Source: Polyangiales bacterium
GTDB lineage: Bacteria > Myxococcota_A > Polyangia > Polyangiales > Ga0077539
Reading direction: 5' to 3'
Length of the DNA: 64,000 nucleotides
Assembly (NCBI GenBank): GCA_044229975.1
Contig: JBGARZ010000004.1
Coordinates: forward strand, 320,001-384,000
Shown here: positions 1-18,119 of the stretch, in pieces
Position numbering within the stretch: position 1 is the first letter of the stretch
How the letters are laid out: each line of letters starts with the position of its first letter
Notes under the pieces: model-generated
Told to the model about the DNA's origin: nothing
Seen by the model: only the letters and a program-made list of their open reading frames with translations
Databases searched by the model: none
Made by a program: the position numbers and the translations under genes

Positions 1-1403
1 GCGCCCACGCCCAGCGCCACCACCGCCGCGTGCGCCGCGCGGAACGGCTCCCCGCGGGCCTTCAACGCCGCCTCGGCCGCCGCCGCCTGGCCGAGCGCGG
101 CCTGCGTGCGCTGGCGGGCTTGTGAGAGGTCCTGCCCGAGGGCGTCCATGGCGCGGCCGAAGCGACCCTGCGCGTCCTTGGCGGTGCGGGCCAGCGAGTC
201 GAGGCACATCTGCTCGTGCAGCCAGCGCGAGTGCACGTCGGACATGAGCACCACCGTCGCCCGGATGCGCCCGAAGGCCGCGGTGAGCTCCGGCGTCGTC
301 CCCTGCGGAAAGGCCCGCGCCAGCATCGACGAGAGGATCTCCGTGCGCCGACCCCAGCGCGTCGCCGAGTCCGTCGCGAACATCCCGTGCATCGACGTGT
401 TGGTCGCCGGCGGAATGGAGCGCGTCGGCATCGCCGGGGCGACGAGCCCACCGGAGGGACGGCGCGGCTGCGGGTAGCGGGCGGTGACGTCGGTGAGCGC
501 GCGCTCGATGGCGTGGGCGTCGACGGGTCGCCGCGCGGCGTCCTTCTCCAGGCACTGGAGGATGAGGGCGTCGAGCTCCATCGGGATGTTGGGGTTGAGC
601 CCGCGCGGTGAGGGCGGCGGCTCGCGCAGGTGCTGGATGAGGTAGCTGGTGACGTCCTTCGCGCTGAAGGGGAGCTGCCCCGTCACGCACCGGAACATGA
701 TGCACCCGAGCGCATACAGGTCGGCCGGGATGCCCGCCTCGGTGGTGGTGATGCGCTCCGGGGCCATGTACTGCGGCGTGCCGAAGATCTCGCCGGTGCC
801 GGTGAGCCGCGTGTCGAGCAGGCAGCGCGCGATGCCGAAGTCGAGGATCTTGAGGAGCTCGGAGCCGTCGGGCTGCGGGCACACGTAGAGGTTCTCGGGC
901 TTGAGGTCGCGGTGCAGCACCTGGAAGTCGTGGGCGCGCGCGAGCCCGGCCGAGAGCTGTAGCATCAGGTCGACGGCGCGCTCGATGGGCAGCGGGCCCT
1001 GCGCGCGCTTGAGCACCACCTCCAGCGTGGCGCCCTGGAGAAACTCCATCACCAGGTACGGGATGCCGTCGTCGAGCTCGCCCTCTTCGAGGATCTCGAT
1101 GACGTTGCGGTGCGCGAGTCGCCGGGTGTTGGTGGCCTCGCGGCGGAAGCGCTCGCGCAGCTTGGCGTCGCCCACCAGCTCCTTGCGAAACACCTTCACG
1201 GCGACGGGCCGGTCGCCCGCGTTGCCCATGGCGCGGTAGACGGTCGACATGCCGCCCGCGCCGATGGTCTCCTCGATGCGGTAGCGCCCGGCGATGACCG
1301 ACCCGAGGTGCGGGTCGGGCGCGGTGATGAGCGCCGTGCGGTCGACGAAGCAGTGCGTCGCCTCGGTCGGGTAGCGCAGCTTGCAGGTGGGGCACAGCTT
1401 CAT
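1..1403 (-). CDS. Ser/Thr protein kinase (Hanks type); 3' end runs off the window
   Basis: Manual translation from ATG at 1403: MKLCPTC zinc-ribbon-like start, GRYRIEETIGAGGMSTVY, VLHRDLKPEN, DFG and YMAPE motifs. Absent from the ORF track because there is no stop in the window. Confidence 0.93.
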   Translation of the reverse strand, partial: MKLCPTCKLRYPTEATHCFVDRTALITAPDPHLGSVIAGRYRIEETIGAGGMSTVYRAMGNAGDRPVAVKVFRKELVGDAKLRERFRREATNTRRLAHRNVIEILEEGELDDGIPYLVMEFLQGATLEVVLKRAQGPLPIERAVDLMLQLSAGLARAHDFQVLHRDLKPENLYVCPQPDGSELLKILDFGIARCLLDTRLTGTGEIFGTPQYMAPERITTTEAGIPADLYALGCIMFRCVTGQLPFSAKDVTSYLIQHLREPPPSPRGLNPNIPMELDALILQCLEKDAARRPVDAHAIERALTDVTARYPQPRRPSGGLVAPAMPTRSIPPATNTSMHGMFATDSATRWGRRTEILSSMLARAFPQGTTPELTAAFGRIRATVVLMSDVHSRWLHEQMCLDSLARTAKDAQGRFGRAMDALGQDLSQARQRTQAALGQAAAAEAALKARGEPFRAAHAAVVALGVG

Positions 1404-1480
1404 CCGGTCACTCCGAGGGCGCGCAGTGTAACATCGCGGCCCCCCATCGCCGCCACGCGCGAATTGCACCACCCGACGCC

Positions 1481-2455
1481 ATGAACCCCGACCGCCTCGT
1501 CATCGATGCCGCATCCGCCAACCAGACCCTGAGCGCCGTCGCGCGGCGTTGGAAGGACGTTCCGTGGTCGACGGCGAAGGAGTGGTGCGCGCGCGGCAAG
1601 CTGACGGTCAACGGCGTGGTCGAGCGCGACCCGGGCGCCCGCCTCGGGGTCGGGGTCGTGGTCGAACTGCAACTCCACGCGCGCAACACGGGCCCCGAGG
1701 GAGGTGCGCCCGACGCGCTGTATCTCGACCGCGCGCGGCTGATCCACTGCGACCCGCAGATCGTCATCGTCGACAAGCCGCCGGGGGTGAACAGCGTTCC
1801 GTTCGAGGTGGGCGAGCGCGGGGCGCTGGTCGATCGGGTGTCGGCGATGCTCCCGAAGTGGAAGCTCGCGCCCGCGCACGCGCCGCTCTTCGTGGTGCAC
1901 CGGCTCGACCGCGAGACCTCGGGGCTGCTGGTGTTCGGTCGTACCTGGGTGGCCAAGCGCCACCTCGCGGGGCTCTTCCGCAAGCACGACGTCGAGCGGG
2001 TGTACGTCGCGCTGGTGAAGGGCATCATGCCGACGGCGCGTCGCGTGGAGACGGTGCTCCTCGAAGACCGCGGCGACGGGCTGCGGGGCTCGGCGCGCGG
2101 GAAGACGGCGCCGCACATCGGGCAGCGCGCGGTGACGCACGTCCGGCCGCTGCTGGAGTTTCGCAAGGAGGAGGGCGTCACGCTGGTCGAGTGCCGCCTG
2201 GAGACGGGGCGGCAGCACCAGATCCGCATCCACCTGTCGGAGCTGGGGCACCCGGTGCTGGGCGACCGGGTCTACGCGCGGGGCAGGGACGACATGCCGC
2301 CGGCGCCGCGGGTGATGCTGCACGCGCGCACGCTGGGCTTCGTCCACCCGACGCGGGACAACGGGGAGGTGGTTCGGTACGAGGCCACGGTGCCCGACGA
2401 CATGATGACCGTCGCGCGGCGCCTGGGCTTCGTGGGGACGTGGCTGCCGACGTAG
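1481..2455 (+). CDS. RluA/RluD family pseudouridine synthase
   Basis: VDKPPG, VHRLDRETSG (catalytic Asp), GRQHQIRIH and HPVLGD motifs; S4-like N-terminus. Confidence 0.93.
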   Translation: MNPDRLVIDAASANQTLSAVARRWKDVPWSTAKEWCARGKLTVNGVVERDPGARLGVGVVVELQLHARNTGPEGGAPDALYLDRARLIHCDPQIVIVDKPPGVNSVPFEVGERGALVDRVSAMLPKWKLAPAHAPLFVVHRLDRETSGLLVFGRTWVAKRHLAGLFRKHDVERVYVALVKGIMPTARRVETVLLEDRGDGLRGSARGKTAPHIGQRAVTHVRPLLEFRKEEGVTLVECRLETGRQHQIRIHLSELGHPVLGDRVYARGRDDMPPAPRVMLHARTLGFVHPTRDNGEVVRYEATVPDDMMTVARRLGFVGTWLPT

Positions 2456-2509
2456 AATCGGCCTCCCGTGTCCCCTGTCGCGTCACCACGCAGGCGGTCG
2501 GACCTGGTC

Positions 2510-3727
2510 TCAGGGAGCGTGCGGGGCGTCGGTGCGCGCGGCGATCTCGACGGTTCCGCCGCCGCGGTCCATGGACACGGTGAAGCGCGCGAGGAAGCTC
2601 AGCCCGAGCAGTCCATCGAGGTCACCGAGGTCTTCGACGATGGCGACCTGCACGTGCTGCGCGCTCACCCCCTGCACCTCGATGCGATCGACCCAGCCGT
2701 ACTTCGCCGGGTGTCGTCCGCCCGCCGTCTGCACGGTGATGGTCTCCCAGTTGGTGGTGACGATGCCGAGCCGCGCGGCCGTCGCGGCGCTCAGGGCCAC
2801 GAGGCTCGCGCCCGTGTCGACGGCGAACTGCCCCGCGGGCCGTCCGTTGACGCTGACCGGTGCGCGCAGAACGCCCGCCCCGCGCATCGGTCGCAGCACG
2901 GCACGCCCGGAGCCCGCCATCGCGCGGCAGGCGTCGTTCTCGTAGAGGCGTCGGATGCGCGCCTCGATCTCCATGCGGTTGCGGACGTCGGGGTTGTAGT
3001 AGACGAACTGTTCGAGCGGGAAGATCGCGTCGCAGGGTCGGTGCGCCTGCTCGTACGCGGTGGCGAGGTTGAAGGGGACATTGTTGATGCGAGGCGAGAT
3101 GGCGAGGGCCTGCTCGAAGTCGACGATGGCGTGGGCCAGGTCGCCGCGGTTGCTGTACGAGACGCCGCGCCAGAAGCGGTAGGTCGCGCTGTTGGGTTCG
3201 GCGTCGACGAGGCGGGTCCACTCGATGGTGGCGGCGTCCCACTGGCTGAGGGTGTCGAGGGCCTCGGCCTTGATCCAGCGGAGGCGCGTGAGGTCGCCGC
3301 AGCGGGCGAAGAAGGCGTCGGCGCGGGTGACGACGGCGCGGTTCTCTCCGGCGCGGCGGAGGTGGCTCGCGAGCTCGACGATCTTCGCGCGGTCGCAGGG
3401 CTCACGCTGGAGGGCCTCGTCGAGCCGCTGGGCCTCCGGCGAGAGCGTGAGCACGGGGTTGGCGATGGCGTCCGCGGTGCGCTTGCGGAAGGCGTTGATG
3501 CCGTAGAGGGCGCCTCCGATGACGGCCGCGAGCGCGACGAGGGCGAGCACGGTCGACTGCATGCGCTGGCGGTCACGGAGCGTGCGCGCGCAGGCGGGGC
3601 AGTGGGGCGACGCGCCGACGTAGACGGTGCACACGTCGCAGGTCTCGCGCAGGCAGCGGGAGCAGGTGCCGGTCGCGGGCGTGGACGGGTGGGCCCGGCA
3701 GTGTGGGAGCTCGACGGCGTCGGTCAT
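2510..3727 (-). CDS. Membrane-anchored clan AA (retropepsin-like) aspartyl protease with B-box-like Zn finger and TPR repeats
   Basis: N-terminal CxxH/CxxC clusters, one TM helix, TPR-like helices, VDTGAS and GLLGLSFL motifs. Confidence 0.82.
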   Translation of the reverse strand: MTDAVELPHCRAHPSTPATGTCSRCLRETCDVCTVYVGASPHCPACARTLRDRQRMQSTVLALVALAAVIGGALYGINAFRKRTADAIANPVLTLSPEAQRLDEALQREPCDRAKIVELASHLRRAGENRAVVTRADAFFARCGDLTRLRWIKAEALDTLSQWDAATIEWTRLVDAEPNSATYRFWRGVSYSNRGDLAHAIVDFEQALAISPRINNVPFNLATAYEQAHRPCDAIFPLEQFVYYNPDVRNRMEIEARIRRLYENDACRAMAGSGRAVLRPMRGAGVLRAPVSVNGRPAGQFAVDTGASLVALSAATAARLGIVTTNWETITVQTAGGRHPAKYGWVDRIEVQGVSAQHVQVAIVEDLGDLDGLLGLSFLARFTVSMDRGGGTVEIAARTDAPHAP

Positions 3728-3749
3728 TGGTTCGGCGAGTAGATCATGA

Positions 3750-3773
3750 TTCCGCGGCCTTCAGGCCGCGGAA
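3750..3773 (-). terminator. GC hairpin downstream of the tRNA cluster (terminator or processing stem)
   Basis: TTCCGCGGCC-TTCA-GGCCGCGGAA perfect 10-bp stem; U-tract weak. Confidence 0.45.
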
Positions 3774-3800
3774 CCGATATCCCCCTATCTGTTCAATGAG

Positions 3801-3874
3801 TGGACCCGACGAGACTTGAACTCGCAACCGTCGGAATAGAAGTCCGCCGCGCTGACCATTGCGCCGCCGGGTCC
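3801..3874 (-). tRNA. tRNA-Arg(UCU), atypical
   Basis: GGACCCG GCG GCGC AATGGTCA GCGC G GCGGA CT-TCT-AT TCCGA CGGTT GCGAG TTCAAGT CTCGT CGGGTCC A. Extra nt before the D arm, no U8, no encoded CCA. Confidence 0.75.
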
Positions 3875-3888
3875 ATTGGACAAGCGGG

Positions 3889-3960
3889 TGCATCCGGGGG
3901 GAGTTGAACCCCCAACCTATCGGGTAAGAACCGAGTACGCTGCCATTGCGTCACGGATGC
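3889..3960 (-). tRNA. tRNA-Lys(CUU)
   Basis: GCATCCG TG ACGC AATGGCA GCGT A CTCGG TT-CTT-AC CCGAT AGGTT GGGGG TTCAACT CCCCC CGGATGC A; no encoded CCA. Confidence 0.88.
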
Positions 3961-4005
3961 ATCGATACGCTGACTTGTTGCTACGCCCTGCTCAGGCGTA
4001 GCGGG

Positions 4006-4101
4006 TCACTTGCGTTTCGACCCGACGGAGCGCGCGCACGCCGCGCCATTGTCGACGATGCGACAATTCAAGGCGCGGGAGGTGCGGGCGATGACAGACA
4101 T
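4006..4101 (-). CDS. 31-aa small ORF between tRNA genes (MSVIARTSRALNCRIVDNGAACARSVGSKRK)
   Basis: Strong GAGGAG Shine-Dalgarno 6 nt upstream of ATG; TGA lies in the 5' arm of a long hairpin preceding tRNA-Lys. Confidence 0.5.
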   Translation of the reverse strand: MSVIARTSRALNCRIVDNGAACARSVGSKRK

Positions 4102-4132
4102 GACGAACTCCTCAAGACGTGCGGACACAGAG

Positions 4133-4205
4133 TACACCGGGAGGGAATTGAACCCCCGACCATCGACTTAACAAGCCGCCGCTCTAACCACTGAGCTACC
4201 GATGC
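4133..4205 (-). tRNA. tRNA with Asn anticodon (GUU) and Lys-like body
   Basis: GCATCGG TA GCTC AGTGGTTA GAGC G GCGGC TT-GTT-AA GTCGA TGGTC GGGGG TTCAATT CCCTC CCGGTGT A; G1-U72, A73; no CCA. Confidence 0.85.
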
Positions 4206-4207
4206 GT

Positions 4208-4277
4208 CGAACGAAAGCCGAGACGTAGTTCCCAAGCGCTAACGCTTGGGGTTCCGATTCTTCGGCTTGCTGTTCGT
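4208..4277 (-). promoter_or_regulatory. Attenuator/terminator-like hairpin immediately 5' of the tRNA cluster
   Basis: Minus strand: outer stem AAGCCGA..TCGGCTT, inner perfect stem CCCAAGCG-TTAG-CGCTTGGG, ending in U-rich TTTCGTT. Confidence 0.55.
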
Positions 4278-4289
4278 CTGGGGGCGCAT
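4239..4289 (-). CDS. Putative leader peptide MRPQTNSKPKNRNPKR
   Basis: ATG CGC CCC CAG ACG AAC AGC AAG CCG AAG AAT CGG AAC CCC AAG CGT TAG; 6 of 16 codons are AAC/AAT/AAG; no SD seen. Confidence 0.5.
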   Translation of the reverse strand: MRPQTNSKPKNRNPKR

Positions 4290-4308
4290 GGAGGTAGGTC
4301 CGGTGCCG

Positions 4309-4336
4309 ACCCTACACCATTGATCAGACATCACAA
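4309..4336 (-). promoter_or_regulatory. Candidate sigma70 promoter of the tRNA operon
   Basis: TTGTGA-N16-TAGGGT with AT-rich upstream DNA; ATCACA-N17-TGTGAT inverted repeat (4330-4358) overlaps the -35. Confidence 0.4.
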
Positions 4337-4438
4337 GATAAAAAATCATCGATGTGATTGTTTTGTGGCTTGAGGGCGTTGCGGGTGTCGGCTGGGAGGG
4401 GATGACGTCTCCATGGGTGTTCTGGCACCTTCACGGCC

Positions 4439-5503
4439 ATGTCAGAGCTCGAACCCTTCCTCGCCGTGCTGCGCCGCGCGGCGGTCGATCAGACCATCGA
4501 CGGAGCGACCGTCCACGCCGCCACGCAGGCGTTGATGGAGGCGTCCGAGCGGTGCTCACCCGCCGAGCGCGACGCGTTGCTCGACGCGCTGCGCGAGGTG
4601 CTCGACCAGCACGGTCCCGCGACGGGCTCCGTCGCCATGCTCACGGGCGCGCTGCTGGAGGAGGGCGGCGACGTGTCGCGGGTGGAGGGCTGGTTCGTCG
4701 AGACGCTGCCGGGCCTGCTGCGCGCGTGCACCGAGGCGAAGGCCCGCCTGGTCGAACTCGGCGACGGGGCCATCGAGCCCGAGCGCCTCGACGAGCTGCT
4801 CGAAGCGCTCGCCGAGAGTGACCCGCGGCTCTTCGGATCGTGGCAGACCTTCACGCACTTCTGGCCGCCGTTCATCGTGGTGCTCGGGTGCAGCTCATTG
4901 GCGCGGGCGGCCCTGCGCGACCAGCGCGACGCGGCCCTCGCGTTGCGGGACGAGCTCGAAGGCGCTGACTGGATCGGGCGGATGCTGTGCGTGATCGACG
5001 ACGAGCCCTTCGTGGCCATCGACCCCGTCGCGCGGCGCGGCTACGTTGGCACCTTCGGCGGTGTCGCGGACAACTTCCAGCTCCACACGCTGCTGGCCGA
5101 CGCGCTCATCGGCGACGTGAAGGACGGCTGGCTGGAGGGCACCCGCCCCGCGCCCGAGGTGGTCCGCTGCGTCCGCGGCGAGGGCCCACAAAACGTCGAG
5201 CCCGTCGTCCACGGCGCGTGGAACCTCTACACCTGGCAGGCCTTCGCGCACGACCCGACCTTGAGTGACGCCTCGTCGATTCCGCATGATCTGTGGGTCT
5301 GGGGCGAAGGCATCCCGACGGACATCCCGACGCTCGACGGCCACCGGGTCATCGGCCTCGGCCCATCGGCCTACCACCGCACATGGCGGGGCAATCGGAT
5401 GTTCCACACGCTGCGCAGCAACCTCACCGTGACGGGTCAGCTCGACGAGGCGGAGCTGGAGCGATGGTTCGCCCGCATCGCGAGCGAGGGCCCGCAAGCC
5501 TGA
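4439..5503 (+). CDS. Hypothetical protein
   Basis: 354-aa ORF with host-like codon usage; no family recognised. Confidence 0.75.
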   Translation: MSELEPFLAVLRRAAVDQTIDGATVHAATQALMEASERCSPAERDALLDALREVLDQHGPATGSVAMLTGALLEEGGDVSRVEGWFVETLPGLLRACTEAKARLVELGDGAIEPERLDELLEALAESDPRLFGSWQTFTHFWPPFIVVLGCSSLARAALRDQRDAALALRDELEGADWIGRMLCVIDDEPFVAIDPVARRGYVGTFGGVADNFQLHTLLADALIGDVKDGWLEGTRPAPEVVRCVRGEGPQNVEPVVHGAWNLYTWQAFAHDPTLSDASSIPHDLWVWGEGIPTDIPTLDGHRVIGLGPSAYHRTWRGNRMFHTLRSNLTVTGQLDEAELERWFARIASEGPQA

Positions 5504-5554
5504 CGACGCGGTCCCCATTGCCCTCGATGGCCCTCCCGGTGGAGCATCCCGGCG

Positions 5555-7396
5555 ATGCACTCGAAACCACGGCGGGGCGCGACGGATCTCGGGGACGGCG
5601 GCGCGGAGTTCGTCCTCTGGGCGCCGTCCTACAACGACATCACCATCGAGCGCGTCGACGTGCGCGCCGAGGGTCTCACCGAGCGCACGCTGCTCACCTC
5701 ACCGAGCGACGATGGCCACTGGGTTGCGCGCGGTCGCACCGCCGCGCCGAAGGTCTTCTACGACTACGAGGTGCACGCCCGCGTGAACTCCACCGGCGAG
5801 CGCTACACCCGCGTCGTCAGCGACCCGTACGCCCGCGAGGTGCACCGCGACTTCCGCTCCGTGCACGCCGCCGCCGATGCGCCGCCTCCGCCGCGACCCT
5901 TCGCGCGCCCAGCCCTTCGCGACCTGCTCATCTACGAGCTCCACGTCTACAACTTCACCGCCGAAGACCCCGTCGTCCGCGGCGCCGCGCGCGGAACCTA
6001 CGCGGGCGTCATCGCGCGTCTGCCGCACCTGCTCGACCTCGGCGTCAACGCCATCGAGCTCATGCCCGTCTTCGACTACTCCGACCCGTGGCAGGTCGGC
6101 GTTCGCTGGAACTACATCACGGCCTGCCACCTCCTCGCGCCGCATCGCGGGTACGCCGCGCACGAGGACGAGGCGCGCCGGGAGTTCATCGAGCTCGTCG
6201 ACGCCTGCCACGCCGCGGGCATCGCCGTGCTCATCGACGCCGTCTTCAACCAGGTGTCGCGGCGCTTCTCCTACGCGCGCATCTACGACCCCGCGCACAA
6301 CCCGCGCGAGGCGCCCGACTGCCGCAACAACCCCCTCCTCGGCAACTTCGGCGGAACCGACCCCAACCCCGGCTCAGAGCCCTACCGCGACAAGGACTGG
6401 GGCGGCGTCGACCTCGACTACGCGCGCCCCGCGGCGATGGAGTTTGTTCGTGATGTGATGGGCGTGTGGTTCGACGAGCTCGGCGTCGACGGCATGCGCT
6501 TCGACCACACCCTCGGCTTCTACCACTGGAAGGACCAGTCGGTCGGCGCGGGCGCTGCTGCGGTCGCAGCGAAGGAGATCGGCGGCGACGACTGCTACCG
6601 CATCGCCGAGCACTTCTCCAACGACCACAACGAGCTCGAACTCTTGAAGGACTCGGCCTTCAATTCCATGTGGGCCAAGGGGTTCTTCTACGCCGCGGAC
6701 GACGCCCTCCACGGCCGCGGCCTCGCGCACCTCGAACACCGCATGAACGTCCGCGCCCAGGGCTTCCCCGACGAGAAGCCCCCGGTGGTGTTTCTCGACA
6801 ACCACGACGACGAGCGCCTCATCAACCGCGGCGCCCAACCGTGGTGGCGCATCCAACCGCCGACCATCGCGCTGCTCACGCACCCGGGCGTTCCGATGCT
6901 CTACATGGGCTGCGAGTACGCCGAGGACGACCGCACGCGCTTCGCGTCGGGCCTGCCCCGCGAGCTCAACCCGCTCGACTGGGACCAGACCGAGGCCACC
7001 GCTCCGCTGCTGCGTCTGCACCGCGCGATGGGCTTCCTGCGCAAGCGCGTGGCGGCGCTGCGCAGCGCGGGCATGACCCCCATCTGGCGCCACGAGAACG
7101 AGCGCGTGCTGATCTACGGTCGCGGCGAGGGAGAGCCCTCGGTCATCGTGGCGCTCAACTTCCACGAAGAGCCGCAGAGCGTGCGCGTGCCGGCGCCGGG
7201 CGGTGACCACGAGTGGCATGAGTTCTTGTTCAACCTCCGCTTCGTGTCGCACGGCGGCGCGATGCATTTCCGTGGTCGCGACGGCGCCGTCTACGACCGC
7301 GTGCTGGTGCCCGGCTCGTACGCGCACATCTACTGCCGCGAGCGCGTCTGGAGCGACGCAGAGTGGACAGCTCTCTTCGCAGTCGACCGGACCTGA
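5555..7396 (+). CDS. GH13 alpha-amylase-family glycosyl hydrolase (TreZ/GlgB/pullulanase-like)
   Basis: CBM48-like N-terminus (FVLWAP, SDPYAR), IYELHV, LGVNAIELMPV; catalytic DGMRFD, IAEH and FLDNHDD. Confidence 0.88.
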   Translation: MHSKPRRGATDLGDGGAEFVLWAPSYNDITIERVDVRAEGLTERTLLTSPSDDGHWVARGRTAAPKVFYDYEVHARVNSTGERYTRVVSDPYAREVHRDFRSVHAAADAPPPPRPFARPALRDLLIYELHVYNFTAEDPVVRGAARGTYAGVIARLPHLLDLGVNAIELMPVFDYSDPWQVGVRWNYITACHLLAPHRGYAAHEDEARREFIELVDACHAAGIAVLIDAVFNQVSRRFSYARIYDPAHNPREAPDCRNNPLLGNFGGTDPNPGSEPYRDKDWGGVDLDYARPAAMEFVRDVMGVWFDELGVDGMRFDHTLGFYHWKDQSVGAGAAAVAAKEIGGDDCYRIAEHFSNDHNELELLKDSAFNSMWAKGFFYAADDALHGRGLAHLEHRMNVRAQGFPDEKPPVVFLDNHDDERLINRGAQPWWRIQPPTIALLTHPGVPMLYMGCEYAEDDRTRFASGLPRELNPLDWDQTEATAPLLRLHRAMGFLRKRVAALRSAGMTPIWRHENERVLIYGRGEGEPSVIVALNFHEEPQSVRVPAPGGDHEWHEFLFNLRFVSHGGAMHFRGRDGAVYDRVLVPGSYAHIYCRERVWSDAEWTALFAVDRT

Positions 7397-7492
7397 CACC
7401 CCCTCGCAAACGTCGTTGACGGGCCTCGCGGAAAGCGCTCCTATCCGCGTCTCCCGCGGCGCCCGTACCGCGTCGCGCGACAACGAGGGACG

Positions 7493-8809
7493 ATGGTCAG
7501 CACACCGCTTGATCCAGACCGCGCCGAGGCGGTCTTCGCTGATTTCAAGGGCGAGTACTCCCGTGAGCAGGCGACGCTCGAAGCGAGCCGCTGCCTCTAC
7601 TGCGCCGACGCGCCGTGCGTGAAGGCCTGCCCCACGCACATCGAGATCCCGCAGTTCATCCGCAAGATCGCGACGGGCAACGTGAAGGGCTCCGCCCGCA
7701 CCATCTTCGACGCCAACATCCTCGGGATGTCGTGCGCGCGGGTGTGCCCCGTCGAGACGCTCTGCGTCGGCGACTGCGTCTACAACCACATGCACAACCC
7801 GCCGATCCAGATCGGCAAGCTCCAGCGCTTCGCCACCGACGTGGCCTACCGCGAGGGCTGGCGCTTCTTCGAAGCCGGTCCCGACACCGGCAAGACCGTC
7901 GCGCTCCTCGGCGCCGGGCCCGCGAGCCTCGCGTGCGCCCACGAGCTGCGCCGCCGCGGCCACGGCTGCACCGTCTACGAGAAGCGACCCGTCGTGGGCG
8001 GCCTCAACTCCACCGGCGTCGCGCCGTACAAGATGAAGGCCGACCGCGCGGCCGACGAGGTCGACTGGGTGCTCGGCATCGGCGGCATCGAGATGGTCAC
8101 CGGCGTCGAGGTCGGCGCGCAGGTGTCCTTCGCCGAGCTCGAAGCCCGCCACGACGCGGTCTTCCTCGGCATGGGACTCGGCCCCGACACGCGGCTGCGC
8201 GTGCCCGGCGAAGACCTGCCGGGTGTTCATGGCGCGGTCGACTTCATCGAGCAGATGAAGCTCACCCGAATGGACCTCTCGGGTGTCCGTCACTGCGTGG
8301 TGGTGGGCGGCGGCAACACGGCGCTCGACGCGGTGCGCGAGGCGAAGGGCCTCGGCGTGAGCGAGGTGGTGATGCTCTACCGCGGCGACGAAGCGGCCAT
8401 GAGCGGCTACGCTCACGAGTGGGCTGCCGGCAAGCAGGAGGGCATTCGCGCAGAGTGGCGCGGCGTGGCCGTGGGCTTCGAGGCGGGCGCCGACGGGCGC
8501 GTGGCGCGAGTGCTCTGCCAGCGGCTCGACGACAAGCGGCAGCCCATCGCGGGTGAGACCTTCACGCTGGCCGCCGAGCTGGTGCTGGTGGCCATCGGGC
8601 AGTCGAAGCTCGGGGCGATGGTCGCGTCGCTGTCGGGCATCGTGGTGGACAAGGGGCGCGTGGTGACCGATGAGCGCGGCGCCACGGGGCGCAAAGGGTA
8701 TTTCGCGGGCGGCGATTGTCGCAACGGCGGCATGGAAGTGGTCAACGCGGCGGCCGAGGGGAAGGCCGCGGCGCTGGCCATCCACGCGTATCTGACGGGA
8801 GAAGTGTGA
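7493..8809 (+). CDS. preT: Dihydropyrimidine dehydrogenase, Fe-S/FAD subunit (GltD-like)
   Basis: RCLYCADAPCVKACP, GAGPA, VVGGGNTALD; TGATG overlap with preA. Confidence 0.9.
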   Translation: MVSTPLDPDRAEAVFADFKGEYSREQATLEASRCLYCADAPCVKACPTHIEIPQFIRKIATGNVKGSARTIFDANILGMSCARVCPVETLCVGDCVYNHMHNPPIQIGKLQRFATDVAYREGWRFFEAGPDTGKTVALLGAGPASLACAHELRRRGHGCTVYEKRPVVGGLNSTGVAPYKMKADRAADEVDWVLGIGGIEMVTGVEVGAQVSFAELEARHDAVFLGMGLGPDTRLRVPGEDLPGVHGAVDFIEQMKLTRMDLSGVRHCVVVGGGNTALDAVREAKGLGVSEVVMLYRGDEAAMSGYAHEWAAGKQEGIRAEWRGVAVGFEAGADGRVARVLCQRLDDKRQPIAGETFTLAAELVLVAIGQSKLGAMVASLSGIVVDKGRVVTDERGATGRKGYFAGGDCRNGGMEVVNAAAEGKAAALAIHAYLTGEV

Positions 8810-10080
8810 TGCCGGATTTGAGTTCGAATACGGGCGGGATTCGCTCGCCCAATCCCTTCTGGCTCGCGTCGGCGCCGCCGGCCAACTCGGGCGGTCAGGT
8901 GCAGCGGGCCTTCGATGCGGGGTGGGGCGGCGCGGTGTGGAAGACCCTCGGTCAGCCCATCCAGAACGTCTCCAGTCGCTTCGGCGCGCACCACATCCCC
9001 GGCACCAAAGCCATCGGCTTCAACAACATCGAGCTCATCACCGACCGCTCGCTGGAGATCAACTTCCGCGAGATCTACGAGACCAAGAAGAAGTATCCCA
9101 ACAACGCGGTGATCGTCTCGCTGATGGTGGAGACCCGCGAGGAGTGGAAGGACATCATCAAGCGCTCGATCGACACGGGCGCCGATGGGTTGGAGCTCAA
9201 CTTCGGCTGTCCGCACGGCATGTGCGAGCGCGGCATGGGTTCGGCGGTGGGGCAGGAGCCCAAGGTCAACGAGCAGATCACCTCGTGGGCGGTGGAGTAT
9301 TCGAGCATCCCGGTGCTGGTGAAGCTGACGCCCAACGTCTCGGACATCATCCCGCACGGGCTCGCGGCCAAGCGCGGCGGGGCGCACGGCGTGTCGCTCA
9401 TCAACACCATCAAGAGCATCATCTCGGTGGACATCGACCGCTTCGTGCCGGAGCCCCGCGTAGAGGGGTTGAGCACCAACGGCGGGTACTGCGGTCAGGC
9501 GGTGAAGCCCATCGCGATGCACATGCTGGCGGCGCTGGCCCGCGAGGAGCGCTTCCGTCTGCCCATCAGCGGCATCGGCGGCATCTCCAACTGGCGTGAC
9601 GCGGTGGAGTTCATTCTATTGGGGTCGAGCTCGGTGCAGGTGTGTACCGAGGTGATGCTGCGCGGCTTCCGCGTGGTGGAGGACATGATCGAGGGCCTGG
9701 AGGAGTACATGCGTACCCACAACTTCTCCAACCTCGACCAGATGATCGGGAAGGCCATTCCGCAGTACTCGGAGTGGGGCAACCTCAACCTCAACTACGA
9801 GACGGTGGCGAAGCTCGACCCGGAGCTTTGTATCGGTTGCAACAAGTGCATGATCGCTTGTGACGATGGGGCGCACCAGTGCATCCACCCCAACCCCAGC
9901 GGGGCGCGGGTGCCGGTGGTGGACGAGAGCGAGTGCGTGGGCTGCAACCTCTGCCAGATCGTGTGCCCGGTGGACGGGTGCATCACCATGGTGGAGGTCG
10001 ACAACGGCTTCGCGCCGTCGAGCTGGAACCAGTTTGTCGAAGAGGGAAGGGTGCTGCGGCCGAAGAAGGGCGCGCACTGA
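8809..10080 (+). CDS. preA: Dihydropyrimidine dehydrogenase, FMN subunit
   Basis: NPFWLASAPP, NNIELI, LELNFGCPHG, VKLTPN, C-terminal 2x[4Fe-4S]; start set to ATG 8809. Confidence 0.95.
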   Translation: MPDLSSNTGGIRSPNPFWLASAPPANSGGQVQRAFDAGWGGAVWKTLGQPIQNVSSRFGAHHIPGTKAIGFNNIELITDRSLEINFREIYETKKKYPNNAVIVSLMVETREEWKDIIKRSIDTGADGLELNFGCPHGMCERGMGSAVGQEPKVNEQITSWAVEYSSIPVLVKLTPNVSDIIPHGLAAKRGGAHGVSLINTIKSIISVDIDRFVPEPRVEGLSTNGGYCGQAVKPIAMHMLAALAREERFRLPISGIGGISNWRDAVEFILLGSSSVQVCTEVMLRGFRVVEDMIEGLEEYMRTHNFSNLDQMIGKAIPQYSEWGNLNLNYETVAKLDPELCIGCNKCMIACDDGAHQCIHPNPSGARVPVVDESECVGCNLCQIVCPVDGCITMVEVDNGFAPSSWNQFVEEGRVLRPKKGAH

Positions 10081-10108
10081 CGTACGGGCTACGCGGAGGA
10101 GTTCATCG

Positions 10109-10987
10109 ATGACGGCAAAGAGCAAGATCGTTCGCTGCGGGCTGATTCAGTGCAGCAACCCCATCAATGACGAGAGCCGCCCGGTGGCGGAGATCCAGAA
10201 GGCGATGTACGAGAAGCACATCCCCTTCATCGAAGACGCGGGCAAGCGGGGCGTGCAGATTCTCTGTCTGCAGGAGATCTTCAACGGGCCGTACTTCTGC
10301 CCGAGCCAGGATCCGCGGTGGTATGCGGCCACGGAGTCGGTGCCGGGGCCGACCACCGATGCGCTCGCGGAGTACGCGAAGAAGTATCAGATGGTCATCA
10401 TCGTCCCCGTGTACGAGAAGGAGATGGCGGGGGTGTTCTACAACACCGCGGCGGTCATCGACGCGGATGGGACGTACCTCGGCAAGTACCGCAAGCAGCA
10501 CATCCCGCAGGTGCGGCCGGGCTTCTACGAGAAGTTCTTCTTCAAGCCGGGCAACGGGGGTTATCCCGTGTTCGAGACCCGCTACGCCAAGATCGGGGTC
10601 TATATCTGTTATGACCGGCACTTCCCCGAGGGGGCGCGGTGCCTTGGGCTCAACGGCGCCGAGATCGTGTTCAACCCGTCGGCCACGGTGGCGGGGTTGT
10701 CCCAATACCTCTGGAAGATCGAGCAGCCCGCGCACGCGGTGGCCAACGGGTACTTCGTCGGCGCCATCAACCGCGTCGGCACCGAAGCGCCCTGGAACAT
10801 CGGGAAGTTCTACGGTTCGAGCTACTTCGTGAACCCGCGCGGCGAGACCATGGTGCAGGCGTCCGAGGACAACGACGAGCTGGTGGTGGCCGACCTCGAC
10901 CTCAACCTCATCGACGAGGTGCGGTCGACGTGGCAGTTCTTCCGCGACCGCCGGCCCGACGCCTACGACGAGATCGTGGAGTCGTAG
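10109..10987 (+). CDS. Nitrilase-family beta-ureidopropionase (N-carbamoyl-beta-alanine amidohydrolase)
   Basis: LQEIF, YRKQHIP, ICYDRHFPE (E-K-C triad); GGAGGAG RBS; operon context. Confidence 0.88.
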   Translation: MTAKSKIVRCGLIQCSNPINDESRPVAEIQKAMYEKHIPFIEDAGKRGVQILCLQEIFNGPYFCPSQDPRWYAATESVPGPTTDALAEYAKKYQMVIIVPVYEKEMAGVFYNTAAVIDADGTYLGKYRKQHIPQVRPGFYEKFFFKPGNGGYPVFETRYAKIGVYICYDRHFPEGARCLGLNGAEIVFNPSATVAGLSQYLWKIEQPAHAVANGYFVGAINRVGTEAPWNIGKFYGSSYFVNPRGETMVQASEDNDELVVADLDLNLIDEVRSTWQFFRDRRPDAYDEIVES

Positions 10988-11007
10988 AGAAGAGCTGTGT
11001 ATTCGCG

Positions 11008-11250
11008 TGCCGGGGTTCACCGTGCAGGCTCTGCGTCCACCGCGCTCGGTTCACCCCGGGCGATGGTAGGGGGTCACCCCATCGCTCCGCGATGGGGTTG
11101 CAACACTGGGGTCGCTTTGCAACCCATCGCTCTGCACACCAGTGCTCGTTCTCTCTGCAACCCCGTCGCGGAGCGATGGGGTGACCCCCTACCATTGCCC
11201 GGGGTGAACCGAGCGCGGTGGACGCAGAGCCTGCACGGTGAACTCCGGCA
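11008..11250. repeat. Long palindromic REPIN/MITE-like element, copy 1 (95-bp arms, 53-bp spacer)
   Basis: Arms 11008-11102 and 11156-11250 are reverse complements with 3 mismatches; homologous to 60563-60880. Confidence 0.92.
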
Positions 11251-11274
11251 CAACGGCCAGACGACATCGAATGA

Positions 11275-12765
<1,491 letters not shown>

Positions 12766-12898
12766 AACCCACGGCAGCCAAGAGAAAGTCCGCTCTGCGG
12801 ACTGCTCAATGCCGAGCACAGTGACCAGCCCGCCACGCGACAACGAATCAGACAATCATCCAACAACCAATAAACCGCATATCAACCAAGGATCTACC

Positions 12899-14389
12899 AT
12901 GGAGCTTCAATTCCCCGCGACGGGCTACGATTTCACCCCCTACGCGCCGGCCCTCAATTGGGTGGGCGGTTCATGGGCCGACGCCCAGCAGAAGCACGGC
13001 GAGCTCGAGATCATCAACCCCCGCCACGGCAAGGCGATGTCCCGCGTGGTGCTCTCCGGCGCCGCGGACGTCGACGCCGCGGTGCGCGCGGGCGAGGCCG
13101 CCTTCGCCACCTGGAAGGACTGGCCGCTGCGCGAGCGCGCCCACGTCTTCTACCGGCTGCGCGAGCTGATGGTGAAGAACATCGACGAGCTCGCGTGGCT
13201 CGTCTCGCACGAGAACGGCAAGATCTTCTCCGAGGCGCGCGCCGAGGTGGAGAAGGGCATCGAGTGCATCGAGTATGGCTGCTCGCTGCCCAACCTCGCC
13301 TCCGGCAACCAGCTCGAAGTGAGCCGCGGTGTCGCCTGTGAAGTGACCTATGAGCCGCTCGGGGTGGTGGCGGGCGTCACGCCGTTCAACTTCCCGTGCA
13401 TGGTGCCCTTCTGGATGCTCCCGCAGGCGATCGTGGGCGGCAATGCCTTCATCTTGAAGCCCAGCGAGCAGGTTCCGCTCTCGTCGATGCGCATCGCGGA
13501 GATGCTCAAGCTGTCGGGGCTGCCCGATGGTGTCTTCAACATCGTTCAGGGTGGTCGCGAGGTGGTGGAGGCGCTCTGCGACCATCCCCGTATCAAGGCA
13601 TTGGGCTTCGTCGGGTCAACGAAGGTGGCGAAGCTCGTCTACGGGCGGGCGTGCTCGACCGGCAAGCGCGCGCTCTGCCTCGGCGGCGCCAAGAACCATC
13701 TCATCGTCGTCCCCGATGCGGACATGGACCTTACGGCCGAGAACGTGATGGCGTCGTTTACGGGCTGCGCGGGTCAGCGCTGCATGGCGGCGAGCGTGCT
13801 GCTGGCGGTGGGCGAGGTCGACCACATCGTCGACGCGGTGGTGAAGCGCGCGGCGAAGATGAAGCTGGGCACCGAGATGGGCCCGGTGACGAGCCGCGAG
13901 GCGGCCGAGCGCATCACGCGCTACATCGACCAGGCCGAGAAGATGGGCGCCAGGGTGCTCATCGACGGCCGCGGCCAGCGCGCGACCGACGGCGGTTACT
14001 GGGTGGGCCCGACGGTGCTCGACGGCGTCACCATGGACATGCCCGCGTCGGCCGAGGAGATCTTCGGACCGGTGCTGTCGATCGTGCGCGTTCCGAATAT
14101 CGACAAGGCGCTGGAGATCGAGAACAACAACCCCTACGGCAACGCGGCGTCGGTCTACACGACCAGCGGCGACGTGGCGCGGCGCGTGATGGACAACGTC
14201 GAGGCCGGGATGTGCGGCGTGAACGTGGGCGTCCCCGTTCCCCGAGAGCCCTTCGGCTTCGGCGGGTGGAACGACTCGGCCTTCGGTCAGGGCAACCTGA
14301 CGGGCTGGGACGGGTATCGGTTCTGGACGCGCCAGCGCAAGATCACCAGCAAGTGGGCGCTCCAGAAGGACGCCACCTGGATGAGCTGA
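12899..14389 (+). CDS. mmsA: CoA-acylating (methyl)malonate-semialdehyde dehydrogenase
   Basis: TPFNFP, LKPSE, FVGST, GGAKNH, AGQRCMA, EEIFGPV, VNVGVPVP. Confidence 0.9.
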   Translation: MELQFPATGYDFTPYAPALNWVGGSWADAQQKHGELEIINPRHGKAMSRVVLSGAADVDAAVRAGEAAFATWKDWPLRERAHVFYRLRELMVKNIDELAWLVSHENGKIFSEARAEVEKGIECIEYGCSLPNLASGNQLEVSRGVACEVTYEPLGVVAGVTPFNFPCMVPFWMLPQAIVGGNAFILKPSEQVPLSSMRIAEMLKLSGLPDGVFNIVQGGREVVEALCDHPRIKALGFVGSTKVAKLVYGRACSTGKRALCLGGAKNHLIVVPDADMDLTAENVMASFTGCAGQRCMAASVLLAVGEVDHIVDAVVKRAAKMKLGTEMGPVTSREAAERITRYIDQAEKMGARVLIDGRGQRATDGGYWVGPTVLDGVTMDMPASAEEIFGPVLSIVRVPNIDKALEIENNNPYGNAASVYTTSGDVARRVMDNVEAGMCGVNVGVPVPREPFGFGGWNDSAFGQGNLTGWDGYRFWTRQRKITSKWALQKDATWMS

Positions 14390-14404
14390 AGGGTCATAGC
14401 AACC

Positions 14405-15724
14405 ATGGAATCAAAAGAGATGATCGAGGCGTGCCTGAAGCACAGCCTCTATTCGTGGTCGGCCAACGGGAAGGTCAACCCGCTGCCGGTGGCGCGCGCC
14501 GAGGGGTTGTACCTGTACACCCCTGAGGGCAAGGCCATCATGGACTTCAACAGCCAGCTCATGAGCGTCAACATCGGACACGGTCATCCCAAGGTGATCG
14601 AGGCGATGAAGAAGCAGATCGACACGCTGATCTTCTCGTACCCGGGGACGGCCACCGAGGTGCGCGCGCGGCTCTCGCTCAAGCTCGCCGAGATCGTCCC
14701 TGGTGATCTCAACATGTTCTTCTATGCGCTGGGCGGCGCCGAGGCCAACGAGAACGCCATCCGCGCGGCCCGGCAGTCCACCGGGCGCTTCAAGATCCTG
14801 AGCCGATATCGCAGCTACCACGGTGGTACCAACGCGATGCTCCAGCTCACGGGCGACCCGCGGCGCTGGGCCAACGAGCCGGGGATGCCCGGCGTGGTCC
14901 GCGTGATGGACCCGCACCCCTACACGTACCGCTTTGGCGACAACGAAGAGGAGGTCGTGGCCAACAACCTGACCTACCTCGAAGAGGTCATCATGTACGA
15001 GGGGCCGCAGACCATCGCCGCGATGGTCATCGAGACGGTCACCGGCAGCAACGGCATCCTGCCGCCGCCGAAGGGCTACCTCCAGGGGCTCCGCAAGCTG
15101 CTCGACAAGCATGGCATCCTGCTCATCTGCGATGAGGTCATGTGCGGCTGGGGGCGGACGGGCAAGCTCTTCGCCTTTGAGCATGGGGAGATCGTTCCCG
15201 ACATCGTGACGATGGCGAAGGGGCTGACGAGCAGCTACTTCCCGCTGGGCGTGATGGCGATGCGCGACAAGGTCGCCAACCACTTCAAGGACAACGTGTT
15301 CTGGGGGGGCTTAACGTACAACGCGCACCCGGTGGGGCTCGCGACGGCGCTCGCGGTCATCGAGGTGTTGGAGGAAGAGAAGCTCGTCGAAAACAGCGCC
15401 CGCATGGGCGAGGTGATGGGCGAACACATGCGGGCGCTCAAGGCGAAGCACCGCTCGGTGGGCGCCGTGCGCAACATCGGACTCTTCGGCATCGTCGAGG
15501 TGGTCAAGAACGCCAAGGGCGATCGCATCGCTCCCTACAACGGCGCGCACCCGGCGATGGCCGCGATGGCGAAGTTCATGCTCGATAACGGGTTGTTCAC
15601 GGTGTTTCGTTGGGACAACTTCATGTGCAACCCGCCGCTGTGCATCAATGAGGCGGAGCTGAAGAAGGCCTTCGACATCATCGATCGGGCGCTGGAGATC
15701 ACCGACGCCGTCTTCGAGGGGTAG
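14405..15724 (+). CDS. Class III PLP aminotransferase (probable beta-alanine transaminase)
   Basis: NIGHGHP, GAEANENA, SYHG, LLICDEVMCGWGRTG, PDIVTMAKGL; operon context. Confidence 0.87.
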   Translation: MESKEMIEACLKHSLYSWSANGKVNPLPVARAEGLYLYTPEGKAIMDFNSQLMSVNIGHGHPKVIEAMKKQIDTLIFSYPGTATEVRARLSLKLAEIVPGDLNMFFYALGGAEANENAIRAARQSTGRFKILSRYRSYHGGTNAMLQLTGDPRRWANEPGMPGVVRVMDPHPYTYRFGDNEEEVVANNLTYLEEVIMYEGPQTIAAMVIETVTGSNGILPPPKGYLQGLRKLLDKHGILLICDEVMCGWGRTGKLFAFEHGEIVPDIVTMAKGLTSSYFPLGVMAMRDKVANHFKDNVFWGGLTYNAHPVGLATALAVIEVLEEEKLVENSARMGEVMGEHMRALKAKHRSVGAVRNIGLFGIVEVVKNAKGDRIAPYNGAHPAMAAMAKFMLDNGLFTVFRWDNFMCNPPLCINEAELKKAFDIIDRALEITDAVFEG

Positions 15725-15726
15725 TC

Positions 15727-16701
15727 GTGACGGGGGGGATCGCCACCGTTCCGCTCACCAACCGGCGCAACCTCGTGCTGTCGCGAGGGCTCATCGCCGT
15801 GATGGTCGTGCTGGTCGTGCTGCTCGTGGTGACGCTGCTCGCCAGGGACAGCGGGCTGTCGCCGCGGGAGGTGCTGCTCATCGTGGCGGCCGTGAGCACG
15901 CCGTTGGTGGCGGCGCTGGTGTGGTCGGTGGTCGCGCGCTGGGGCGACTGCATCGAGCTGATGGCCGACCGCGCGGTGCGGTGGAAGCACTGGCGGGCGG
16001 AGGAGTTCTACTGGCGGGACATCGCGACGACGTGGGCGCGGCTGGGCGGCGACGGCGGGGTCTTCGGTCTGGAGGCGTTCGGTCTTCGCGTGGAGATGAA
16101 CGACAAGCGGACGTTTGCCGTGGAGGGCGTGACCCAGGGGGAGGCCGCGCCGCTCATGCGGGCGATCAACGAGGAGATGCTGGGTCGCTGGTTCGGGGTG
16201 CTGCGACAGGGCGGGGAAGTGGTGTGCCCGGACGCGGTGCGGTTTCCGTGGTTGCGGGCGACGTGGATGGCGGTGGTTGCCGTGTCGGCGCTGGTGAGGT
16301 TGTTCACCAGCGGCGAGGGCGCGGTGGTGGCCGTGGTGCGCGGCGCGCTGGTGGTCGCGAGCGTCTGGTGGGGGTCGTGGCGCGCGGTGCGGACCTGGCA
16401 TCGGGCGCGGAAGATCGGTGGCGTGCGGTTATCGGCAGTGGGCATCCGGGCGGTGAAGGAGACCGCGGAGGAGGCGCTGGTTGCGGCGCCCTATCGGGAT
16501 GCGTCGGCGACGGCGGGGTGGATCCCGTGGTCGATGGTGGAGAGCGCGTCGGTGGACGGTTACGGCATGGAGATTCGCTGCCGCGATCGGGCAGAGCCGC
16601 TGGTGCTGTCGAGCGGGACGGCGAACCTCCTGGTGGTGTACGAGCTCCTGCGGGTGATGCTGAGGGGCGAAGTGCTGACGGGGCCGCCGCGGCGGGACTG
16701 A
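15727..16701 (+). CDS. Hypothetical membrane protein
   Basis: Two pairs of TM helices, each followed by a beta-rich (possibly PH-like) domain. Confidence 0.65.
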   Translation: MTGGIATVPLTNRRNLVLSRGLIAVMVVLVVLLVVTLLARDSGLSPREVLLIVAAVSTPLVAALVWSVVARWGDCIELMADRAVRWKHWRAEEFYWRDIATTWARLGGDGGVFGLEAFGLRVEMNDKRTFAVEGVTQGEAAPLMRAINEEMLGRWFGVLRQGGEVVCPDAVRFPWLRATWMAVVAVSALVRLFTSGEGAVVAVVRGALVVASVWWGSWRAVRTWHRARKIGGVRLSAVGIRAVKETAEEALVAAPYRDASATAGWIPWSMVESASVDGYGMEIRCRDRAEPLVLSSGTANLLVVYELLRVMLRGEVLTGPPRRD

Positions 16702-16702
16702 G

Positions 16703-17467
16703 CTACGGGCAGGTCGACGGGTTGACGATGTGCCGCGAGGGGTCGGTACCGACGGCGGGCCGACCCGACTGGTCGTGCGCGACGACGACGTGGCAGACCT
16801 CGTCGGTCACGTTGCCAGCGCGGTCGGTGACGCGAACGCCGAGGGAGTACACGCGCCCGTCGCCGTTGCCCCGCCGCTCGGCGCGCACGGCCACGGCATC
16901 ACACCCCACAAACTGAACGTCCTCGGTGGTGTTGCCGTCGCCGGTGGTGTTGTCCGGTTCGTCGACCGAGGCCCAGGTGAACACCGCGCGCGGAGCCGCG
17001 TCGCAGGCGTCGCGCACCGTGACGCAGTCGGCCGGGTGGATGGTCTCCATGCGGTGGTTGGGTGGCCAGAGCGCGACCACGCGGGGCGTGACGACGGGAG
17101 CCACGCGGTCGACCACCACCACGGTCGCGGTGCACACGCTACGCGCGGGGTCGCTCGCCGCGTCGCGAACCACGACGGCGTTGGCGCCGAGCGCGAGGCC
17201 GTCGGGCGTCGCGGTGAGTCGCGCAGACGCGCACCAGCCGGGAGCTGATGCTTCGACGAACAACGGCGGGACGACCGCGCCGCATTCGAGGATCTGCTCG
17301 CCCTCGCAGAGGAGCGCGCCCGTCGGCGGCGGCGGCGCGCCGGGCTCGATGCAGGTGACCGTGATGGCCTGAGCGGTCGATGCGGGAGGCGCGGGGGCGT
17401 CGGCTCCGCAAGCGGCCAGCAGGCTGACGGCGAGGCACGGGATGAGGTGCTTGTGGAGTTGGATCAT
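16703..17467 (-). CDS. Lipoprotein with Ig/HYR-like Cys-containing domains
   Basis: Lipobox LLAAC; LWPPNH and RAERRGNGDGRVY motifs. Confidence 0.72.
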   Translation of the reverse strand: MIQLHKHLIPCLAVSLLAACGADAPAPPASTAQAITVTCIEPGAPPPPTGALLCEGEQILECGAVVPPLFVEASAPGWCASARLTATPDGLALGANAVVVRDAASDPARSVCTATVVVVDRVAPVVTPRVVALWPPNHRMETIHPADCVTVRDACDAAPRAVFTWASVDEPDNTTGDGNTTEDVQFVGCDAVAVRAERRGNGDGRVYSLGVRVTDRAGNVTDEVCHVVVAHDQSGRPAVGTDPSRHIVNPSTCP

Positions 17468-18039: not shown

Positions 18040-18042
18040 ATG

Positions 18043-18105: not shown

Positions 18106-18119
18106 TGGAGGACACCACC

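Follow-up and report, generated by a model that had tools for sequence, protein, structure and literature searches.

A candidate codon-sensing leader ahead of a back-up tRNA operon in a Polyangiales genome that carries nine such operons

The leaders trpL, hisL, leuL and pheL, the ‘multivalent’ leaders thrL and ilvL, and pheM (ahead of pheST) are all leader-peptide transcription attenuators. One published account (PMC3082878) concerns pheL. The locus described here shares several features with these amino-acid-operon attenuators: a short upstream open reading frame (uORF) with cognate codons lies between promoter and genes, alternative RNA helices are predicted, the position of the ribosome is predicted to set read-through, and one leader serves several amino acids. 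In contrast to those systems, the regulated product is tRNA itself, leader and genes are matched at the level of the isoacceptor, nine parallel operons (for 14 amino acids) occur in the genome, several of the sister leaders end without a U-tract, and the uORF here forms the 5' arm of the terminator-like stem around a nested hairpin that holds the stop codon. Because the genes downstream of the leader are three tRNAs, and not proteins of biosynthesis, transport or aminoacylation (synthetases), the operon falls outside the classical attenuator class.

Supernumerary tRNA genes are known from the ‘L-arrays’, including the Anabaena trn operon, where they form patchily distributed sets of isodecoders that are read, in the accessible portion of the source, as a stress-induced alternative set (PMC8421152). 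Control of the Anabaena operon is there assigned to direct repeats in the promoter, over the -10 box and start site, and a repressor (PMC8421152; TrcR, PMC10272220), the words ‘leader’ and ‘attenuat’ are absent from the main text of the first of these papers, and the portion just mentioned treats the individual regulation of bacterial tRNA genes as largely open (PMC8421152). The present genome resembles the L-arrays in its supernumerary tRNA cargo, and in having a Ro60/TROVE gene and a YrlA-like RNA beside other variant tRNAs; unlike them, its set is split into operons of one to five genes, each with a uORF of its own and with no long co-oriented run.

The uORFs of wblC/whiB7 and topAI are similar to the present leader in that they report ribosome trouble. 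As far as the extracts of these sources go, the WblC regulon includes six tRNA genes that are reached via a transcription factor (PMC7157823), topAI is governed by an antibiotic-sensing uORF attenuator (PMC12121999), and the uORFs control a transcription factor or a toxin gene, with no codon match to downstream tRNAs. The leaderless polycysteine short ORFs of mycobacteria, which in the available part of the report attenuate operonic genes in response to cysteine (10.1101/834739), are comparable in that cognate sensing relies on short ORFs at the start of the transcript, without an SD sequence and in a GC-rich host; they differ in that operonic genes are regulated there and tRNA genes here. A T-box riboswitch was considered and excluded, the Rfam matches in the window being tRNAs only; the T-box paper PMC2494555, in the section available, has tRNA ligase genes as its subject. 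Feedback through cognate-codon leaders is described for amino-acid and antibiotic-response genes, and none was found for tRNA genes. A first-pass annotation of this DNA had noted that leader-peptide control of tRNA genes by their own codons is not known to be described, and a full-text literature search, with most subscription journals outside it, agreed: cognate-codon leaders on tRNA genes were described in no title or opening of an abstract.

The operon lies in a window (the whole stretch of DNA that was analysed) of 64,000 nucleotides, from a genome of 10.0 Mb and 71% GC. It consists of three tRNA genes (the variant operons of this genome hold five at most), preceded by a predicted promoter and a leader ORF and interrupted by a second short ORF (Table 1). 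All three tRNAs score above the Rfam threshold, and housekeeping genes for Asn-GUU, Lys-CUU and Arg-UCU are present on other contigs of the genome, a duplication of all three anticodons in keeping with the earlier description of a ‘back-up’ operon. The tRNA-Lys(CUU) variant is of a type seen in tRNA arrays of the order, and the tRNA-Asn(GUU) is a second copy in addition to a housekeeping tRNA-Asn.

Table 1. Features of the Asn/Lys/Arg tRNA operon, in order of transcription (window positions)
Feature	Position	Strand	Basis or remark
Predicted promoter TTGTGA-N16-TAGGGT, AT-rich stretch 5' of it	4309..4336	minus	Best match under the mechanical rule of this study
Leader ORF, 16 codons, MRPQTNSKPKNRNPKR and stop	4239..4289	minus	3 Asn and 3 Lys codons cognate to operon tRNAs; no SD
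Segment 1, codons 2-5, with a predicted antiterminator-like pairing to the 3' arm in place of segment 2	4275..4285	minus	Suboptimal folds and folds with masked positions
Segment 2, codons 8-11, 5' arm of terminator-like stem	4259..4268	minus	Folding
Inner 8-bp hairpin, stop codon in loop	4231..4250	minus	Folding
Segment 3, 3' arm and tail UUUCGUUC (5 U of 8)	4209..4223	minus	Predicted conditional 3' end near 4209
Variant tRNA-Asn(GUU), G1.U72 and A73	4132..4205	minus	ARAGORN; Rfam 64.6 bits
Second short ORF, 31 codons, good SD, end K-R-K-stop in hairpin loop	4006..4101	minus	Between tRNA-Asn and tRNA-Lys
Variant tRNA-Lys(CUU), U32/C38 loop	3886..3961	minus	ARAGORN; Rfam 63.1 bits
Variant tRNA-Arg(UCU)	3800..3874	minus	ARAGORN; Rfam 44 bits

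The tRNA-Asn deserves separate comment. G73 is an identity element for AsnRS and A73 one for LysRS. Among 35 GUU calls, A73 is unique to the window's tRNA-Asn; the other 34, all in arrays, carry G73 (32) or U73 (two). Its acceptor pairs include two G.U, AsnRS is encoded in the genome, and GatB was not found in the assembly (93% complete). The molecule may be poorly charged, mischarged (possibly with Lys) or decaying. Its acceptor and T-arm also resemble those of the neighbouring tRNA-Lys.

The leader ORF proposed by the first-pass annotation, with 16 codons on the minus strand and six of them AAC, AAT or AAG, is present at 4289-4239, between the predicted promoter and the tRNA genes, and the relevant codons are AAC6, AAG8, AAG10, AAT11, AAC13 and AAG15. 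Six of 15 leader codons are therefore cognate to tRNAs of the operon, where genome codon usage would predict 0.6 (p=2e-5, with no correction for selection). The three Arg codons are CGC, CGG and CGT, as had also been claimed, with AGA absent; neither AGA nor AGG occurs in either short ORF of the operon (the leader and the 4101-4006 ORF). The promoter is plausible under the rule adopted here, and eight sister operons show the same layout, but a strict sigma-70 consensus scan called none at this operon. An SD sequence is indeed missing, which had been entered as a caveat. This is, however, weak evidence against translation of the leader, because starts that lack one are common in this genome: an SD-like word was found in 274 of 1,160 sampled long ORFs (161 after shuffling), a rough estimate in which the first ATG of each long ORF was taken as its start. 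Within the genus, a number of recurrent stretches between promoter and ATG are likewise short and show no obvious SD. One metatranscriptome run yielded a 181-nt contig identical to 3925-4105, the sole full-length piece in positions 1-20000 of the window; it carries no weight, as the run was located using the same stretch, the depth is about 3, and the contig could be DNA. Contigs of DNA runs contained no variants of the leader.

The Asn/Lys/Arg operon is one of nine dispersed operons of supernumerary tRNAs in the genome, each of which has a promoter, a short ORF, a hairpin and tRNAs. Divergent tRNA clusters were located by ARAGORN, nine were chosen in which some sequence separates an AT-rich promoter from the first tRNA, and the leader was taken to begin at the first ATG after the best -35/-10 match within 500 nt. 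Besides MRPQTNSKPKNRNPKR, the leaders are MCACLHHPHRY (operon Tyr, His), MSACLHHPHRY (operon in which only Tyr was called), two of 34 and 32 codons that are rich in Asp, Arg and Glu (operons Glu, Arg, Asp), one of 31 codons with seven Gly (Gly twice), one of 23 codons with three Leu (Leu three times), one of 42 codons with 15 Ser and five Cys (Cys and four Ser), and a 105-codon frame that spans tRNA-Trp and goes on into Gln-rich sequence (Trp, Phe and two Gln). The Cys tRNA was identified by eye, outside the ARAGORN and Rfam calls, and a similar sequence exists in the genus-mate G004. Two further variant loci, for Thr on C21 and for Arg-GCG on C2, were left uncounted, having no promoter match under the rule. 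In the paralogous Tyr operon on C34 the His tRNA is missing and the acceptor stem is damaged.

The match between leaders and tRNAs was assessed by permutation. With paralogues merged into seven leader classes, the true pairing with the tRNA sets was the best of all 5,040, a comparison in which both the nine operons and the leader rule had been selected after the leaders were seen; it kept first place among the 5,040 when Arg was disregarded, and among 720 when the window's operon was left out, whereas control frames (+1, +2 and reverse) ranked 383, 4,804 and 3,361 of 5,040. Counted by gene, the leader of the operon holds a cognate codon for 26 of 27 tRNAs, against a mean of 11.2 under permutation (two of 362,880 permutations reach 26), and the sole gene without a cognate leader codon is the window's tRNA-Arg(UCU). 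The match extends to isoacceptors: the leader of tRNA-Arg(CCU) has three AGG codons, its paralogue ahead of tRNA-Arg(ACG) has none, and the eight leaders other than the first contain a single AGG among their 265 codons, and the Leu leader has CTG, CTT and TTG, one for each of its three tRNAs. Taken singly, the Leu (p=0.32), Trp/Phe/Gln (p=0.25) and single-Tyr (p=0.15) leaders are not significant. As a housekeeping control, 43 other tRNA loci were put through the same rule. Fourteen had no promoter match, 21 of the 29 matches lay within 35 nt of the tRNA, three at 49-92 nt had no complete ORF, and five were distant and lower-scoring; at none of the 43 did a promoter scoring like the nine have a complete ORF before the tRNA.

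A parallel case is provided by the long tRNA arrays of the order. The variant tRNA-Lys pattern was found in 43 of 401 genomes of the order (a reversed control pattern in three), and 40 tRNA-Lys loci were taken, of which one had no tRNA cluster and was excluded. At 32 of the 39 array loci tested, an ORF stops 29-50 nt short of a GC stem whose tail is U-rich; the other seven gave no terminator-plus-ORF under the rule. The stop region pairs with the 5' arm of the terminator better than four upstream control windows do in 28 of these 32 arrays (mean -17.5 versus -12.8 kcal/mol), which, as a prediction from pairing energies, is classical attenuator geometry. When the last 45 leader codons were compared with array tRNA content, averaged by genus over 16 genera, the mean correlation was 0.285, a value reached by one of 200,000 permutations; this overstates the significance, as the genera are kin and the tRNA content of an array is a lower bound, counted within the stretch taken. 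Five genera ranked first and two of the 16 gave a negative correlation, and the control frames returned p=0.048 (+1), 0.63 and 0.78. The hairpin of the Cys/Ser mini-operon resembles the hairpin of its family's arrays, and because this array-type hairpin is retained, the sequences suggest that the mini-operons are pieces of an attenuator-led array. By eye, the leaders of two long arrays, L033 (48 codons) and L071 (about 78 codons), seem to hold all 20 amino acids. In the pair L124/L125, from one genus, the array in which a tRNA-Pro was called has a 30-codon leader with three Pro codons, and the array without one has no Pro codon in the matching 30 codons.

Conservation of this uORF, named as a check at the outset, gave a divided answer: no orthologue of the leader was recovered, but three sister leaders are kept in genus-mates. 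A DNA search for the operon in 41 relatives and 401 genomes of the phylum returned only matches of tRNA length, the tRNA listings of seven genus-mates and selected loci contained no orthologue, and neither the operon nor its downstream protein was found in the eight genus-mates searched. Pattern scans gave six loci, from other lineages, over genome contigs, no match in two metagenome scans, and nine viral tRNA loci, none of them like this operon. The genomes searched are 64-94% complete, with tRNAs often unassembled, and hence the absence of an orthologue is not established. The Tyr/His operon is kept in G004 (leader MTPRIHHPHRY) and G005 (MTACIHHPHRY), both leaders ending in HHPHRY and a stop, G005 also keeps the Glu/Glu/Arg/Asp operon with its leader, and the Cys/Ser operon of G004 has a 39-codon leader with six Ser and three Cys. 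A scan of 60 further genomes of the order for the Tyr/His leader pattern had no match.

Codons 5-16 of the leader ORF had further been described as the 5' arm of a nested hairpin whose loop holds the stop codon and which ends in a U-rich stretch just before the first tRNA. Such a structure was found, with outer arms at 4268-4259 and 4223-4214, an inner stem at 4250-4231, the tail UUUCGUUC at 4216-4209, and an outer helix that continues to 4206, adjoining tRNA-Asn +1. The terminator-like stem closes a large, nested loop of about 35 nt, and its 5' arm is formed by the uORF itself, unlike the situation in the arrays. The fold has a z-score of -2.77 (one of 200 shuffles was equally stable), and three of 1,000 synonymous recodings of the leader ORF folded as well. 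A strict terminator scan called nothing before tRNA-Asn. The U-tract had been thought weak; it does have only five U in eight positions, but this is not unusual, being the median of the related array terminators, whose 32 tails hold from three to eight U (fewer than five in 15 of 32).

The influence of a translating ribosome was simulated by equilibrium folding of RNA emerged up to the U-rich tail, with a ribosome placed on it under three footprint sizes; the stem scored was that between codons 8-11 and 4223-4217. The simulated stem probability was 0.90 with the ribosome on codons 2-4, 0.00-0.41 on codon 6, 0.00 for A-site codons 7-15 under all three footprints, and 0.85, 0.29 or 0.73, depending on footprint, at the stop. 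In the ribosome-free leader it was only 0.23, with codons 2-5 competing for the 3' arm; among suboptimal folds of the nascent leader, the segment-1 alternative has -29.5 versus -28.0 kcal/mol for the terminator form. Failure of initiation would also favour read-through, because the stem probability falls to this low value without a ribosome. All six Asn/Lys codons lie within the range of codons in which the simulated ribosome affects the stem. The proposal that a stall on these codons would mask the terminator is consistent with this predicted geometry, the modelled stem being lost with the ribosome on codons 7-15.

In the mechanism proposed here, the 16-codon, Asn/Lys-rich frame would be translated as a sensor ahead of three spare tRNA genes. 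With the A site on codons 7-15, segment 2 would be masked, the stem before UUUCGUUC blocked, and transcription would proceed into the tRNA genes; a ribosome that reaches the stop would leave segments 2 and 3 free to pair; and with no ribosome, segment 1 would compete and allow read-through in part. The signal would be that functional tRNA for the leader codons is lost, being cleaved, under-modified or under-charged: a supply of further tRNA would be no remedy for starvation of the amino acid itself, and the sister leaders match isoacceptors and not amino acids alone. The mini-operons may derive from an attenuator-led tRNA array that moved horizontally and broke up, with leaders that then specialised. 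That the leader is regulatory and codon-matched is highly probable; that it works by codon-sensing attenuation of back-up tRNAs is likely, with less assurance, and termination as the output at this operon, which is predicted from the folding models, is likewise somewhat favoured and may not be the output common to its sisters. The original claim of codon-sensing control gains from the eight further operons, the sister leaders of genus-mates and the in-frame match over 16 genera; it is left with an unmatched Arg-UCU and a leader for which no orthologue was found.

The strongest challenge to termination comes from a reading with the same codon-matched sensor and a different output, in which a leader helix at tRNA +1 blocks tRNA folding or RNase P, and so maturation, until a ribosome masks it. 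Four sister leader types (Tyr/His, Glu/Arg/Asp, Gly and Leu) have terminal hairpins without a U-tract, which leaves termination as the common output only if terminators that lack one function here. At the Asn/Lys/Arg operon the outer helix does reach the neighbourhood of tRNA +1. The four Tyr/His leaders are complementary, through their His-Pro-His codons, to bases 1-7 of tRNA-Tyr, with one two-sided pair change, and masking these codons raises the predicted acceptor-stem probability from 0.00 to above 0.9 (C4 copy); of the three Glu/Arg/Asp leaders, two show a smaller folding penalty with the ribosome on early cognate codons and one of 7-13 kcal/mol as it nears the end of the ORF. However, the Tyr/His covariation is a single event, matched by 72 of 500 shuffles, the Gly leader has no effect, and leader-acceptor complementarity is not special across the operons (ranks of 900 and 2,131 among 5,040 permutations). 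At the operon in the window, moreover, a stall raises the folding penalty of tRNA-Asn (2.4-5.3 kcal/mol on codons 6-15 versus 2.9 when free), and the second and third tRNAs would stay ungated. Control of maturation is accordingly given a distinctly minor share of the probability, and Rho-dependent release is a further possible output of such a sensor. Decoying of acceptor stems as a general rule for these leaders was rejected on the unremarkable complementarity in the permutations, and short leader-anticodon helices proved to be within chance for sequences of these lengths.

Two further explanations appear improbable. The uORF might be a general sensor of translation stress, like the leaders of wblC and topAI, with any stall or failed loading opening the operon and codon identity of little importance; this would suit the minority share of the ribosome-free terminator form (0.23), the long, mixed leaders of the long arrays and, in the available part of the source, the induction of the Anabaena trn operon by general translational stress (PMC8421152). 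It would leave unexplained both the leader-by-leader codon match at isoacceptor level and the way in which leaders track array content across genera, although general stress sensing can coexist with codon-matched attenuation as a second input. Slightly more improbable still is that the operon is a decaying relic of a regulated array with a non-functional leader, or that A-rich sequence has produced the ORF by chance. Decay is what the failure to find the operon in eight genus-mates, the loss of G73 and the two G.U acceptor pairs in tRNA-Asn, the 44 bits of tRNA-Arg and the damaged Tyr operon on C34 would lead one to expect, but the ORF is intact, codon-matched and placed as in the other eight operons, its fold is better than that of 997 of 1,000 synonymous recodings, and all three tRNAs pass the Rfam threshold.

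Codon-matched attenuation would amount to a direct feedback loop from a failure of decoding to the supply of the same tRNA, in a setting where tRNA arrays have so far mostly been seen as cryptic or under blanket stress control. What this case adds is a bacterial chromosome with nine parallel operons, together with an order-wide test. On present evidence it is likely that decoding is audited by codon family, each operon having its own test ORF, so that a tRNA species lost to a nuclease, a toxin or a missing modification induces just its replacement, and that this is an order-wide design of arrays whose leaders are re-tuned as tRNA genes are gained, lost or split off. The sequence of a leader is then predicted to reveal which tRNAs an array backs up. 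A role of the spare tRNAs in anti-defence or tRNA damage would become testable codon by codon, with nine natural reporters that should each respond to loss of their own tRNA only. PrrC, colicin D and colicin E5 are anticodon nucleases with tRNA targets of their own; because the nine operons together cover 14 amino acids, the system is not specific to those targets.

Several smaller observations concern the tRNA genes and their surroundings. In the second short ORF of the operon (4101-4006), the codons AAA, CGC and AAG match the downstream tRNAs in part only, and an ORF start directly before the first Lys tRNA is seen in several arrays as well. A strong GC hairpin (3775-3748, minus strand), noticed by eye after tRNA-Arg and before a TPR/aspartic-protease gene, is a possible terminator of the operon. 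The Trp/Phe/Gln leader frame (L021, about 3025-3345, plus strand) spans a whole tRNA-Trp-like gene and stops just before tRNA-Phe; the three tRNA-Leu of L028 (3220-3613, minus strand) have short variable arms (73-76 nt), with a long hairpin between the first two; and in L022 the spacer after tRNA-Ser(UGA), which lies between two Ser tRNAs, has an SD and then a minimal ATG-TGA frame. At L029 (3041-3238, plus strand), behind an ORF that by eye looks HNH-like, a variant tRNA-Thr accompanies a YrlA-like RNA whose score of 40.5 bits falls short of the family threshold, and at L030 (2886-4863, plus strand) a variant tRNA-Arg(GCG) precedes the Ro60/TROVE gene. A short RF1-like release-factor gene lies behind the Tyr/His tRNAs (L024, 2400-3100, minus strand; L023, about 3630-4300, plus strand; L038-L051) and is split over two frames; their junction, CTT-TAG-C in C4 and CTT-TGA-C in C34 as well as several relatives, resembles the RF2 frameshift site. 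Among 301 genomes of the order, 15 have this gene, and in G273 and G624 it lies inside long tRNA arrays.
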